Part shown: one piece after another, positions 3,152 through 51,433 of the stretch
Layout: each line of letters opens with the position of its first letter
Numbering within the stretch: position 1 is the first letter of the stretch
DNA from: Escherichia coli
GTDB lineage: Bacteria > Pseudomonadota > Gammaproteobacteria > Enterobacterales > Enterobacteriaceae
Length of the DNA: 64,000 nucleotides
Reading direction: 5' to 3' (one strand)
NCBI RefSeq assembly: GCF_017348835.2
Contig: NZ_CP071375.1
Position numbers and translations under genes: made by a program
The notes under the pieces: model-generated
What the model saw: the letters and a program-made list of their open reading frames with translations, nothing else
Told to the model about the DNA's origin: nothing
The model's database searches: none

Positions 3152-3919
3152 TTACGCCATCCCATCATGTTTATGTTGCTGTTGTGCGTGTTCCGTTTTG
3201 AACTCCGCCAGCAACCTTGCTTGCTCTTCAGTCAGAGCCAGGTTTTCCAGAAGTTCAGGTCTTCTAAGCCAGGTACGGCCCAGCGACTGTTTCAAACGCC
3301 AGCGACGTATCTCGGCATGGTTGCCCGACAGTAACACTGGCGGAACTTCCATCCCTTCTAACACCTCAGGCCGCGTATAGTGCGGGCAATCCAGCAATCC
3401 TTCAGCAAAGGAATCTTCCGTTGCCGAGGCTTCATGTCCCAGTACTCCCGGAATAAACCGGGAAACGGAGTCAATCAGCGTCATTGCTGGTAACTCACCA
3501 CCACTGAGAACGTAATCGCCGATTGACCATTCTTCGTCAATTTCGGTTTGGATCACGCGCTCATCTATACCTTCGTAGCGACCGCACACCAGAATCAATT
3601 TTTGATTCGTTGCCAGTTCGCTGACGCCCGCTTGATCAAGCTTGCGTCCCTGTGGTGAAAGATAAATCACCTTTGCGCCTTCACCCGCCGCGGCTTTTGC
3701 TGCATGAATGGCGTCCCGCAAGGGTTGCACCATCATTAACATCCCCGGTCCGCCGCCGTAAGGACGATCGTCCACGGTACGGTGCCGGTCATGCGTGAAA
3801 TCGCGAGGACTCCAGCTCTGGATGCTCAGCAGGCCATTTTTAACTGCCCGGCCAGTTACCCCGTAATCGGTAATTGCGCGGAACATTTCAGGAAACAGGC
3901 TAATTATGCCAATCCACAT
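3152..3919 (-). CDS. trmD: tRNA (guanine37-N1)-methyltransferase
   Basis: 255 aa, [13 protein letters not shown]... classic TrmD N-terminus; operon context. Confidence 0.97.
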
Positions 3920-46170: not shown

Positions 46171-46908
46171 ATGGAAAGCCCTACTCCACAGCCTGCTCCT
46201 GGTTCGGCGACCTTCATGGAAGGATGCAAAGACAGTTTACCGATTGTTATTAGTTATATTCCGGTGGCCTTTGCGTTCGGTCTGAATGCGACCCGTCTGG
46301 GATTCTCTCCTCTCGAAAGCGTTTTTTTCTCCTGCATCATTTATGCAGGCGCGAGCCAGTTCGTCATTACCGCGATGCTGGCAGCCGGGAGTAGTTTGTG
46401 GGTTGCTGCACTGACCGTCATGGCAATGGATGTTCGCCATGTGTTGTATGGCCCGTCACTGCGTAGCCGTATTATTCAGCGTCTGCAAAAATCGAAAACC
46501 GCCCTGTGGGCGTTTGGCCTGACGGATGAGGTTTTTGCCGCCGCAACCGCAAAACTGGTACGCAATAATCGCCGCTGGAGCGAGAACTGGATGATCGGCA
46601 TTGCCTTCAGTTCATGGTCATCGTGGGTATTTGGTACGGTAATAGGGGCATTCTCCGGCAGCGGCTTGCTGCAAGGTTATCCCGCCGTTGAAGCAGCATT
46701 AGGTTTTATGCTTCCGGCACTCTTTATGAGTTTCCTGCTCGCCTCTTTCCAGCGCAAACAATCTCTTTGCGTTACCGCAGCGTTAGTTGGTGCCCTTGCA
46801 GGCGTAACGCTATTTTCTATTCCCGTCGCCATTCTGGCAGGCATTGTCTGTGGCTGCCTCACTGCGTTAATCCAGGCATTCTGGCAAGGAGCGCCCGATG
46901 AGCTATGA
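46171..46908 (+). CDS. ygaZ: L-valine exporter subunit YgaZ (AzlC family)
   Basis: 245 aa polytopic membrane protein; 11-bp overlap with ygaH. Confidence 0.88.
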
Positions 46909-47233
46909 GGTTCTGCTGCTTGGGTTACTGGTTGGCGCGGCGAATTATTGCTTCCGCTATTTGCCGCTGCGCCTGCGTGTGGGTAATGCCCGCCCAACCA
47001 AACGTGGCGCGGTAGGTATTTTGCTCGACACCATTGGCATCGCCTCGATATGCGCTCTGCTGGTTGTCTCTACCGCACCAGAAGTGATGCACGATACACG
47101 CCGTTTCGTGCCCACGCTGGTCGGCTTCGCGGTACTGGGTGCCAGTTTCTATAAAACACGCAGCATTATCATCCCAACACTGCTTAGTGCGCTGGCCTAT
47201 GGGCTCGCCTGGAAAGTGATGGCGATTATATAA
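46898..47233 (+). CDS. ygaH: L-valine exporter subunit YgaH (AzlD family)
   Basis: 111-aa small membrane protein translationally coupled to ygaZ. Confidence 0.88.
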
Positions 47234-47323
47234 CCCACAAGAATCATTTTTCTAAAACAATACATTTACTTTATTTGTCACTGTCGTTACTATATCGGCT
47301 GAAATTAATGAGGTCATACCCAA

Positions 47324-47854
47324 ATGGATAGTTCGTTTACGCCCATTGAACAAATGCTAAAATTTCGCGCCAGCCGCCACGAAGATTTTCCTTATCAGGA
47401 GATCCTTCTGACTCGTCTTTGCATGCATATGCAAAGCAAGCTGCTGGAGAACCGCAATAAAATGCTGAAGGCTCAGGGGATTAACGAGACGTTGTTTATG
47501 GCGTTGATTACGCTGGAGTCTCAGGAAAACCACAGTATTCAGCCTTCTGAATTGAGTTGTGCTCTTGGATCATCCCGTACCAACGCGACGCGTATTGCCG
47601 ATGAACTGGAAAAACGCGGTTGGATCGAACGTCGTGAAAGCGATAACGATCGCCGCTGCCTGCATCTGCAATTAACGGAAAAAGGTCACGAGTTTTTGCG
47701 CGAGGTTTTACCGCCGCAGCATAACTGCCTGCATCAACTCTGGTCCGCGCTCAGCACAACAGAAAAAGATCAGCTCGAGCAAATCACCCGCAAATTGCTC
47801 TCCCGTCTCGACCAGATGGAACAAGACGGTGTGGTTCTCGAAGCGATGAGCTAA
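47324..47854 (+). CDS. mprA: MarR-family repressor MprA (EmrR)
   Basis: 176 aa; wHTH region; directly upstream of emrAB. Confidence 0.95.
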
Positions 47855-47900
47855 CGCGTCATCTCGCTCAAAAATCCAGATTTATAAAAGAAAAAATGAC

Positions 47901-47932
47901 CGGCCAGCATCGCAACATGCTGGCCTTTTTGG
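47901..47932 (+). terminator. Strong intrinsic hairpin between mprA and emrA (possible attenuator/partial terminator)
   Basis: GGCCAGCAT-CGCAAC-ATGCTGGCC (9-bp stem) followed by TTTTTGG. Confidence 0.5.
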
Positions 47933-47980
47933 CAAGCAGGTCGGCTCAGCCGATGAGTTAAGAAGATCGTGGAGAACAAT

Positions 47981-49153
47981 ATGAGCGCAAATGCGGAGAC
48001 TCAAACCCCGCAGCAACCGGTAAAGAAGAGCGGCAAACGTAAGCGTCTGCTCCTCCTTCTCACCTTGCTCTTTATAATTATTGCCGTAGCGATAGGGATT
48101 TATTGGTTTTTGGTACTGCGTCATTTCGAAGAAACCGATGACGCATACGTGGCAGGGAATCAGATTCAAATTATGTCTCAGGTGTCTGGCAGCGTGACGA
48201 AAGTCTGGGCCGATAACACCGATTTTGTAAAAGAAGGCGATGTTCTGGTCACTCTCGACCCGACAGATGCTCGCCAGGCGTTTGAAAAAGCCAAAACTGC
48301 ACTGGCTTCCAGCGTTCGCCAAACCCACCAGCTGATGATTAACAGCAAGCAGTTGCAGGCGAATATTGAGGTGCAGAAAATCGCCCTCGCGAAAGCACAA
48401 AGCGACTACAACCGCCGTGTGCCGCTGGGCAATGCCAACCTGATTGGTCGCGAAGAGCTGCAACACGCCCGCGACGCCGTCACCAGTGCCCAGGCGCAAC
48501 TGGACGTCGCGATTCAACAATACAATGCCAATCAGGCGATGATTCTGGGGACTAAACTGGAAGATCAGCCAGCCGTGCAACAGGCTGCCACCGAAGTACG
48601 TAACGCCTGGCTGGCGCTGGAGCGTACTCGTATTGTCAGTCCGATGACCGGTTATGTCTCCCGCCGCGCGGTACAGCCTGGGGCGCAAATTAGCCCAACG
48701 ACGCCGCTGATGGCGGTCGTTCCAGCCACCAATATGTGGGTGGATGCCAACTTTAAAGAGACGCAGATTGCCAATATGCGTATCGGTCAGCCGGTCACTA
48801 TCACCACCGATATTTACGGCGATGATGTGAAATACACCGGTAAAGTGGTTGGTCTGGATATGGGCACAGGTAGCGCGTTCTCACTGCTTCCGGCGCAAAA
48901 TGCGACCGGTAACTGGATCAAAGTTGTTCAGCGTCTGCCTGTGCGTATCGAGCTGGACCAGAAACAGCTGGAGCAATACCCGCTGCGTATCGGTTTATCC
49001 ACGCTGGTGAGCGTCAATACCACTAACCGTGACGGTCAGGTACTGGCAAATAAAGTACGTTCCACTCCGGTAGCGGTAAGCACCGCGCGTGAAATCAGCC
49101 TGGCACCTGTCAATAAACTGATCGACGATATCGTAAAAGCTAACGCTGGCTAA
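47981..49153 (+). CDS. emrA: Multidrug efflux membrane-fusion protein EmrA
   Basis: Start at MSANAETQTPQQPVKKSGKRKR (390 aa); single N-terminal TM, HlyD-like coiled-coil. Confidence 0.95.
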   Translation: MSANAETQTPQQPVKKSGKRKRLLLLLTLLFIIIAVAIGIYWFLVLRHFEETDDAYVAGNQIQIMSQVSGSVTKVWADNTDFVKEGDVLVTLDPTDARQAFEKAKTALASSVRQTHQLMINSKQLQANIEVQKIALAKAQSDYNRRVPLGNANLIGREELQHARDAVTSAQAQLDVAIQQYNANQAMILGTKLEDQPAVQQAATEVRNAWLALERTRIVSPMTGYVSRRAVQPGAQISPTTPLMAVVPATNMWVDANFKETQIANMRIGQPVTITTDIYGDDVKYTGKVVGLDMGTGSAFSLLPAQNATGNWIKVVQRLPVRIELDQKQLEQYPLRIGLSTLVSVNTTNRDGQVLANKVRSTPVAVSTAREISLAPVNKLIDDIVKANAG

Positions 49154-49169: not shown

Positions 49170-50708
49170 ATGCAACAGCAAAAACCGCTGGAAGGCGCGC
49201 AACTGGTCATTATGACGATTGCGCTGTCACTAGCGACATTCATGCAGGTGCTGGACTCCACCATTGCTAACGTGGCGATCCCCACTATCGCTGGGAATCT
49301 GGGCTCATCGCTCAGCCAGGGAACGTGGGTAATCACTTCTTTCGGGGTGGCGAATGCCATCTCGATCCCGCTTACCGGCTGGCTGGCAAAGCGCGTCGGG
49401 GAAGTGAAACTGTTCCTCTGGTCAACCATCGCCTTTGCTATTGCGTCGTGGGCGTGTGGTGTCTCCAGCAGCCTGAATATGCTGATCTTCTTCCGCGTGA
49501 TTCAGGGGATTGTCGCCGGGCCGTTGATCCCGCTTTCGCAAAGTCTATTGCTGAATAATTACCCGCCAGCCAAACGCTCGATCGCGCTGGCGTTGTGGTC
49601 GATGACGGTGATTGTCGCGCCAATTTGCGGCCCAATCCTCGGCGGGTATATCAGCGATAATTACCACTGGGGCTGGATATTCTTCATCAACGTGCCGATT
49701 GGCGTGGCGGTGGTGTTGATGACACTGCAAACTCTGCGCGGACGTGAAACCCGCACCGAACGGCGGCGGATTGATGCCGTGGGGCTGGCACTGCTGGTTA
49801 TTGGTATAGGCAGCCTGCAGATTATGCTCGACCGCGGTAAAGAGCTGGACTGGTTTTCATCACAGGAAATTATCATCCTTACCGTGGTGGCGGTGGTGGC
49901 TATCTGCTTCCTGATTGTCTGGGAGCTGACCGACGATAACCCGATAGTCGATCTGTCGTTGTTTAAGTCGCGCAACTTCACCATCGGCTGTTTGTGTATC
50001 AGCCTCGCGTATATGCTCTACTTCGGCGCGATTGTTCTGCTGCCGCAGTTGTTGCAGGAGGTCTACGGTTACACGGCGACCTGGGCAGGTTTGGCCTCTG
50101 CGCCGGTAGGGATTATTCCAGTGATACTGTCGCCGATTATCGGCCGCTTCGCGCATAAACTGGATATGCGCCGACTGGTAACCTTCAGCTTTATTATGTA
50201 TGCCGTCTGCTTCTACTGGCGTGCCTATACCTTTGAACCAGGTATGGATTTTGGCGCGTCGGCCTGGCCGCAGTTTATCCAGGGGTTTGCGGTGGCCTGC
50301 TTCTTTATGCCGCTGACCACCATTACGCTGTCTGGTTTGCCACCGGAACGACTGGCGGCAGCATCGAGCCTCTCCAACTTTACGCGTACGCTGGCGGGGT
50401 CGATCGGCACATCGATAACCACGACCATGTGGACTAACCGTGAGTCGATGCACCATGCGCAGTTGACTGAGTCGGTAAACCCGTTCAACCCGAATGCCCA
50501 GGCGATGTACAGTCAACTGGAAGGGCTTGGGATGACGCAACAGCAGGCCTCCGGCTGGATTGCCCAGCAGATCACTAACCAGGGGCTGATTATTTCCGCC
50601 AATGAGATCTTCTGGATGTCAGCTGGGATATTCCTCGTCCTGCTGGGGCTGGTGTGGTTTGCTAAACCGCCATTTGGCGCAGGTGGCGGCGGAGGCGGTG
50701 CGCACTAA
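49170..50708 (+). CDS. emrB: Multidrug efflux MFS pump EmrB (14-TM)
   Basis: Start at MQQQKPLEGAQLVIMTIALSLATFMQVLD (512 aa). Confidence 0.95.
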   Translation: MQQQKPLEGAQLVIMTIALSLATFMQVLDSTIANVAIPTIAGNLGSSLSQGTWVITSFGVANAISIPLTGWLAKRVGEVKLFLWSTIAFAIASWACGVSSSLNMLIFFRVIQGIVAGPLIPLSQSLLLNNYPPAKRSIALALWSMTVIVAPICGPILGGYISDNYHWGWIFFINVPIGVAVVLMTLQTLRGRETRTERRRIDAVGLALLVIGIGSLQIMLDRGKELDWFSSQEIIILTVVAVVAICFLIVWELTDDNPIVDLSLFKSRNFTIGCLCISLAYMLYFGAIVLLPQLLQEVYGYTATWAGLASAPVGIIPVILSPIIGRFAHKLDMRRLVTFSFIMYAVCFYWRAYTFEPGMDFGASAWPQFIQGFAVACFFMPLTTITLSGLPPERLAAASSLSNFTRTLAGSIGTSITTTMWTNRESMHHAQLTESVNPFNPNAQAMYSQLEGLGMTQQQASGWIAQQITNQGLIISANEIFWMSAGIFLVLLGLVWFAKPPFGAGGGGGGAH

Positions 50709-50716
50709 GTACAACT

Positions 50717-50744
50717 AAGCCAGTTCATTTGAACTGGCTTTTTT
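50717..50744 (+). terminator. Intrinsic terminator after emrB
   Basis: AAGCCAGTTCA-TT-TGAACTGGCTT hairpin followed by TTTTT. Confidence 0.6.
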
Positions 50745-51355: not shown

Positions 51356-51433
51356 GAAAGACGCGCATTTGTTATCATCATCCCTGAATTCAGAGATGAA
51401 ATTTTGGCCACTCACGAGTGGCCTTTTTCTTTT
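51356..51433 (+). ncRNA. micA: MicA (SraD) small regulatory RNA
   Basis: GAAAGACGCGCATTTGTTATCATCATCCCTGAATTCAGAGATGAAATTTTGGCCACTCACGAGTGGCCTTTTTCTTTT in the luxS-gshA intergenic region; terminator hairpin plus U-tract. Confidence 0.82.

Follow-up and report, generated by a model that had tools for sequence, protein, structure and literature searches.

A terminator between mprA and emrA in Escherichia coli and its conservation across Enterobacteriaceae

The mprA-emrAB locus of Escherichia coli raises a simple question: what does a strong terminator-like hairpin do inside an annotated operon, between the gene for a repressor and the genes for the efflux pump that it represses? A preliminary description of the sequence had reported a 9-bp GC-rich hairpin followed by a T-run between mprA (emrR) and emrA, and suggested that it might act as an attenuator or as a partial terminator that sets the ratio of repressor to pump. 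We have examined this proposal in the window (the whole 64-kb stretch of E. coli DNA that was analysed), in published transcript maps, and in related genomes. A terminator between mprA and emrA is already known and has been in print since Adams et al. (2021) and Chen et al. (2025); the contribution of the present analysis is confirmation and comparative context, not discovery.

The hairpin and the transcripts that end at it

Gene order at the locus is that of K-12 MG1655, namely ygaZ, ygaH, mprA, emrA and emrB, followed by luxS and gshA on the opposite strand. The 801 bases around the hairpin are present at an identity of at least 99% in about 5,400 of 5,426 complete E. coli genomes, where the flanking genes are annotated emrR (mprA) and emrA, in agreement with the names assigned in the preliminary description. 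Window positions convert to MG1655 (NC_000913.3) coordinates with a verified offset of +2,763,446. The genes and the parts of the terminator are as follows.

47324-47854, + strand: mprA (emrR) coding sequence, MarR-family repressor of emrAB (open reading frame list; RefSeq annotation in E. coli genomes and K-12)
47902-47910, + strand: 5' arm of the terminator stem, GGCCAGCAT (sequence and folding; 47902-47909 are 97.6% conserved across 77 spacers)
47911-47916, + strand: terminator loop, CGCAAC (sequence; 55% conserved, length variable between genera)
47917-47925, + strand: 3' arm of the terminator stem, ATGCTGGCC (47918-47925 are 99.0% conserved; three of the nine pairs between the arms show compensatory changes)
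47926-47930, + strand: U-tract, TTTTT (directly abuts the stem with no spacer; mapped RNA 3' end at 47930)
47981-49153, + strand: emrA, periplasmic adaptor of the EmrAB-TolC pump, downstream of the terminator (open reading frame list and annotation)
49170-50708, + strand: emrB, MFS pump subunit and last gene of the annotated operon (open reading frame list and annotation)
50717-50740, both strands: two-way terminator hairpin common to emrB (+) and luxS (-), the end of any read-through transcript

The stem joins 47902-47910 to 47917-47925 in nine perfect pairs, six of them G-C, around a 6-nt loop; the full sequence of 47902-47925 is GGCCAGCAT-cgcaac-ATGCTGGCC. The hairpin alone has a folding energy of -15.5 kcal/mol, and the 41-nt stretch singled out in the preliminary description (47895-47935) reaches -16.9 kcal/mol, with z = -2.75 against dinucleotide shuffles. 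It stands on the coding strand of both mprA and emrA, within a 126-nt spacer (47855-47980), 47 nt past the mprA stop codon (47852-47854) and 50 nt ahead of the emrA ATG (47981). The bases right after the five-residue U-tract are GGC. A single base distinguishes this spacer from that of K-12 MG1655 (47901, C versus T), and it lies just outside the stem. To place the hairpin against background, both strands of the 64-kb window were scanned for perfect stems of 9 bp or more that contain five or more G-C pairs, close a loop of 3-8 nt and are followed by at least five T among the next six bases. Five distinct sites were found, including the mprA-emrA hairpin and the emrB/luxS terminator, against a mean of 0.01 in 100 dinucleotide-preserving shuffles of the window. 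The observation of a strong hairpin with a T-run is correct, and it is far beyond chance.

The preliminary description had named 3'-end mapping as a check, and published Term-seq data give a positive answer. The curated 3' ends of MG1655 include 2,811,376 (+), with a score of 861 and the class 'orphan' (Adams et al., 2021, eLife 10:e62438, Supplementary file 1). This position is the final T of the run (window 47930); the flanking sequence of the entry reads GGCCAGCATCGCAACATGCTGGCCTTTTT up to the end and GGCAAG after it. The peak is weak (861 versus 208,906 for nearby luxS) and is entered on the first of three growth-condition tabs only, which we take from the caption order to be LB at OD 0.4. 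Both mprA and emrA are absent from the Rho-termination table of the same study, where the 2,811,376 end carries no individual Rho score.

Other ends in these data mark the surroundings of the locus. On the luxS strand, a strong 3' end at 2,814,159 (-), window 50713, falls at the emrB/luxS two-way terminator (Adams et al., 2021); just downstream of that terminator is the MicA small RNA gene (51356-51428), which has its own terminator hairpin at 51406-51423. A plus-strand end at 2,809,617/8 corresponds to window 46171, exactly the ygaZ start codon, and appears in two growth conditions (Adams et al., 2021), which points to transcripts that end prematurely in the ygaZH leader.

Transcript sizes agree with the mapped end. 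Chen et al. (2025, PNAS 122:e2513802122) name the element a Rho-independent terminator. In their northern analysis the main mprA RNA is about 900 nt long, rather than the approximately 3.5-kb mprA-emrAB RNA, and it is lost in an mprA deletion. Their 5' RACE places a triphosphate-dependent start in ygaH codon 49, giving a predicted ygaH'-mprA transcript of 888 nt with its 3' end at the terminator. Our coordinates reproduce this length: the ygaH ATG at 46898 plus 144 puts codon 49 at 47042-47044, and 47930 - 888 + 1 = 47043.

47043, + strand: approximate published transcription start, the 5' end of the 888-nt ygaH'-mprA RNA (Chen et al., 2025)

A promoter scan and inspection by eye of 47000-47043 found no strong sigma-70 -10/-35 consensus upstream of this start.

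Conservation of the spacer across Enterobacteriaceae

A scan of 100,044 species genomes with the MprA protein yielded 80 loci at 90-99% protein identity, from Escherichia, Salmonella, Citrobacter, Enterobacter, Klebsiella, Raoultella, Kosakonia and other genera. In every locus that extends far enough, emrA lies downstream of mprA; one truncated locus (L027) alone is without it. The spacer measures 114-133 nt in all loci but one. The exception is genome RIT714 (L020, about 3570-3640), in which about 60 inserted nucleotides in the mprA 3' UTR, ahead of the terminator, extend the spacer to 189 nt and leave the hairpins intact.

Alignment of the 77 distinct mprA-emrA spacers shows that the stem is held far more tightly than the loop: the two arms are 97.6% and 99.0% conserved versus 55% for the loop, whose tally takes in the ninth, innermost stem pair. 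Standard pairs are formed by 95.7% of the terminator stem cells. Three of the nine stem pairs carry double compensatory changes; L075, for instance, has GGCCTGCAT/ATGCAGGCC, and L076 and L080 have AGCCAG/CTGGCT. When columns were shuffled 500 times, no shuffle came up to the pairing and covariation values of the tested structure as a whole, and pairing falls from 93% to 29-50% when the partners are slid by 1-3 columns.

The tail has a narrower distribution. An uninterrupted TTTTTGGC tail (window 47926-47933) is found in 8 of the 77 spacers, comprising all five from Escherichia together with L076, L079 and L080, which are Kosakonia/Enterobacter-like. In 60 of the 77 the tail is interrupted (TTTCTGA followed by C or T), and the stem is equally conserved in such genera. 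Because the uninterrupted tail is nearly restricted to Escherichia, termination is probably weaker outside this genus, to judge from the sequences. Equal conservation of the stem where the tail is interrupted also hints that the hairpin may do more than terminate. Acquisition of ygaZH and of the new mprA start site has been assigned to the Escherichia lineage (Chen et al., 2025), and one could speculate that gain of the U5 tract is tied to this acquisition.

The alignment also brings out elements of the spacer outside the terminator.

47874-47882, + strand: conserved block ATCCAGATT in the mprA 3' UTR, a possible anti-Shine-Dalgarno partner of 47964-47973 (77-spacer alignment)
47940-47954, + strand: second hairpin, GTCGGC-TCA-GCCGAT, without a U-tract (77-spacer alignment and folding)
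47963-47976, + strand: near-invariant block AAGATCGTGGAGAA with the emrA Shine-Dalgarno GGAG at 47971-47974 (96.9% conserved in the alignment)

The second hairpin begins 10 nt beyond the terminator, with 98.3% of cells paired, compensatory changes at two pairs and a mean pairing probability of 0.91. In the minimum-energy fold, the ATCCAGATT block pairs with the AAGATCGTGGAGAA block in a long-range helix that encloses both hairpins. Changes in this helix are mostly one-sided and wobble-compatible, and its 3' side is invariant.

One disrupted copy of the terminator was seen in E. coli. In the blood-culture isolate AF57 (UK; NZ_OZ546943.1; L082 1575-3000), an IS4 element sits inside the 3' arm, at about window 47921, with a 12-bp target duplication, CGCAACATGCTG. 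The two stem arms are thereby separated between mprA and emrA.

Probable constitutive termination, possible read-through and competing readings

Of the two roles proposed for the hairpin in the preliminary description, a terminator inside the annotated operon is borne out by the Term-seq 3' end and the northern analysis. An attenuator in the regulated sense is not. With 76, 231, 607 or 888 nt of upstream RNA the hairpin pairs with a probability of about 0.98, and forbidding its 3' arm costs 12.3 kcal/mol; we rejected an antiterminator switch because no competing fold appeared in any upstream context from 76 to 888 nt. An open reading frame of 21 codons, MTGQHRNMLAFLASRSAQPMS, runs across both hairpins from an ATG at 47896 to a TAA at 47959-47961. 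This ATG is present in E. coli only (E. albertii and other genera have CTG or another codon), and loop indels that are not multiples of three break the frame. Leader-peptide attenuation was rejected on these grounds, and the reading frame is probably fortuitous. Rfam returned no match for the element, even at E values up to 10. The sole match in 46800-48500 is a chance hit to wcaG inside emrA on the minus strand (E = 0.7), and a known RNA family was rejected. Because there is no competing fold, conserved leader reading frame or Rfam match, the element looks like an unregulated, constitutive terminator and not a switchable attenuator.

Two further candidates were set aside. A dispersed repeat of the REP/BIME type was rejected because the element has a median of one location per genome across 5,417 E. 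coli genomes. A two-way terminator serving an antisense gene was rejected because the T-run on the minus strand starts 6 nt past the stem and there is no convergent gene.

We favour a constitutive intrinsic terminator in the mprA 3' UTR, with partial read-through feeding emrAB, as the explanation of the locus as a whole, at a probability of roughly 0.85. This model starts from four observations: the hairpin structure, its conservation, the 3' end found in vivo and the dominance of the short isoform. RNA polymerase from the mprA promoters would transcribe the stem GGCCAGCAU/AUGCUGGCC and the five U residues; the hairpin would form in the exit channel, and most complexes would release their RNA at or near the last U (47930). 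The product would be a monocistronic mprA mRNA, with the 888-nt ygaH'-mprA species as its main form in LB. Polymerases that do not terminate would pass the second conserved hairpin and continue into emrA and emrB, and a single MprA-repressed promoter region would in this way yield much more repressor message than pump message. The model takes the 3' end to be made by termination and not by trimming, and read-through to be the source of emrAB mRNA. Its caveats are a weak Term-seq peak, a tract of only five U residues, and a tail that is interrupted in most other genera.

A five-U tract rarely gives complete termination. This short tract, the lack of a promoter-like site in the spacer and control by an MprA operator upstream of mprA are the reasons for which we favour partial read-through over an essentially complete terminator, which would split mprA and emrAB into separate units and require an emrAB promoter in or near the spacer. 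A complete terminator would fit the main mprA RNA, which stops at the site, and the two points that speak against read-through: operon-length RNA is not prominent (Chen et al., 2025), and the curated Term-seq ends include no plus-strand 3' end past emrB (Adams et al., 2021). Both points could reflect low expression. There is also a -35-like hexamer after the stem, TTGGCA at 47929-47934 (CTGACA in other genera), but it has no acceptable -10 partner at the right distance. Consensus scans detected no sigma-70-like promoter in the spacer (47855-47980) and none on the plus strand of 47364-48338, and by these scans an internal promoter in the spacer is improbable, though a start in the 50 nt ahead of emrA keeps some probability. 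Older genetic work, as relayed by the literature that cites it, further places emrAB under the MprA-bound promoter/operator upstream of mprA and reports that loss of mprA raises the emrA transcript. Taken with these results, complete termination seems improbable.

The mapped end could also have arisen without termination. Polymerase would read through into emrAB, the RNA would be cleaved, and 3'-to-5' exonuclease trimming back to the stem would leave the short mprA RNA; trimming of a longer RNA could leave a 3' end five nucleotides past a stable stem. Term-seq cannot separate termination from processing, and Adams et al. (2021) ascribe most of their 3' ends to processing. A stem that merely stabilises 3' ends would also be compatible with a 3.5-kb species that is not the main isoform (Chen et al., 2025) and with retention of the stem in most genera despite an interrupted tail (UUUCUGA). 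We nevertheless consider trimming an unlikely origin of the end: its position is precisely the final U of a tract abutting a G-C-rich stem, as is characteristic of intrinsic termination, and Chen et al. (2025), on the basis of their northern blots, likewise interpret the element as a terminator. At the level of DNA, the inverted repeat could be an operator for a dimeric transcription factor, being a perfect 9-bp palindrome whose arms are kept in sequence rather than mainly by covariation. Yet genera differ in the distance between the arms, from about 3 to 12 nt, a poor match to a fixed dimer geometry, and it is because of this variable spacing that we regard the element as an RNA hairpin and not as a fixed-geometry protein operator. 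The double changes in L075, L076 and L080 keep pairing rather than sequence, and an RNA 3' end maps at the U-tract. An operator is highly improbable.

The whole 126-nt spacer might instead be a structured cis-regulatory RNA that gates emrA translation or conditional read-through, made up of the two hairpins and a long-range helix of UCCAGAU (47875-47881) with AUCGUGGA (47966-47973). Apart from the terminator, three other blocks are far better conserved than the flanks; the upstream block is paired with the emrA Shine-Dalgarno region in the minimum-energy fold, and wobble pairing survives the C-to-U and A-to-G changes seen in Klebsiella and Raoultella. The long-range helix itself argues in the other direction: pairing holds in only 87.6% of its cells, one position accounts for 17 breaks, and its mean pairing probability is 0.44, exceeding 0.5 in only 36 of the 77 sequences. 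It contains one double change, in a single sequence, and the invariant 3' side leaves covariation untestable. Given also the lack of an Rfam match and of any fold competing with the terminator, we see only a small chance that the spacer works as such a unit.

Related systems and meaning for the pump

With a G-C-rich stem-loop past a stop codon, a U-tract immediately 3' of it and an in vivo 3' end at the end of that tract, the element belongs to the ordinary class of intrinsic terminators. Canonical E. coli examples, such as the emrB/luxS terminator at 50717-50740, likewise have a short loop on a perfect, G-C-rich stem of 9-10 bp, with a U-tract adjoining the stem and an RNA 3' end mapped in that tract in vivo. 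Unlike them, the mprA-emrA element sits between co-oriented genes of one annotated operon and not at the end of a unit, and its U-tract has only five residues before GGC.

Its position is that of internal partial terminators, such as T1 between rpsU and dnaG in rpsU-dnaG-rpoD and the attenuator between rplL and rpoB. These leave the upstream gene in excess and make the downstream genes dependent on read-through. The textbook comparison extends to a hairpin with a U-tract in an intercistronic spacer, and read-through at mprA-emrA would complete the likeness. A difference from both systems is that mprA, the upstream gene, encodes an autoregulated repressor of the same promoter; a partial terminator here would shape a feedback loop and not a simple ratio.

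Two other classes of RNA element invite comparison. With Term-seq, Dar and colleagues reportedly found in 2016 drug-responsive leader-peptide attenuators upstream of resistance genes. The mprA-emrA element resembles these in that the same method shows RNA ending prematurely ahead of a drug-resistance gene. Such attenuators need a translated leader reading frame and antiterminator folds, whereas here the frame at 47896-47961 has its ATG in E. coli only and there is no competing fold. Small RNAs derived from 3' UTRs keep the parental terminator, and the 76-nt mprA 3' UTR is similar in its stable terminator hairpin end and conserved upstream sequence; it differs in that no separate short RNA, Hfq or ProQ association, or Rfam family was found for it. 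A five-U tail is short for Hfq binding.

The conserved blocks around the terminator allow a more speculative proposal, which we put forward tentatively and consider doubtful. The mprA-emrA spacer may be a multi-part RNA, with an anti-Shine-Dalgarno block, a terminator, a second hairpin and a ribosome-binding block, that gates the pump after transcription has started, the terminator having been strengthened specifically in Escherichia (UUUCUGA to UUUUUGG), the lineage that also gained ygaZH and the mprA start within ygaH. If this were true, the output of repressor and pump would be uncoupled to different degrees among enteric genera, and spacer mutations, for example the IS4 insertion in AF57 or those selected by CCCP, would be a route to efflux-based resistance with the repressor intact. 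Six such mprA-emrA intergenic mutations, beside loss-of-function alleles of mprA, are reported in a preprint on experimental evolution of W3110 under CCCP (Griffith et al., bioRxiv 10.1101/392977).

Substrates of EmrAB-TolC include uncouplers and nalidixic acid among other toxic compounds, and capsule and further virulence traits are also under MprA control. With a terminator between the repressor and pump genes, the two are not expressed one-to-one from a shared promoter, and the usual annotation of an mprA-emrAB operon overstates their co-transcription. It is plausible that the terminator sets the stoichiometry of repressor and pump, as the preliminary description had supposed, and the resulting ratio may have a physiological role. 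The consequence is a changed interpretation of induction, autoregulation and resistance mutations at this locus.
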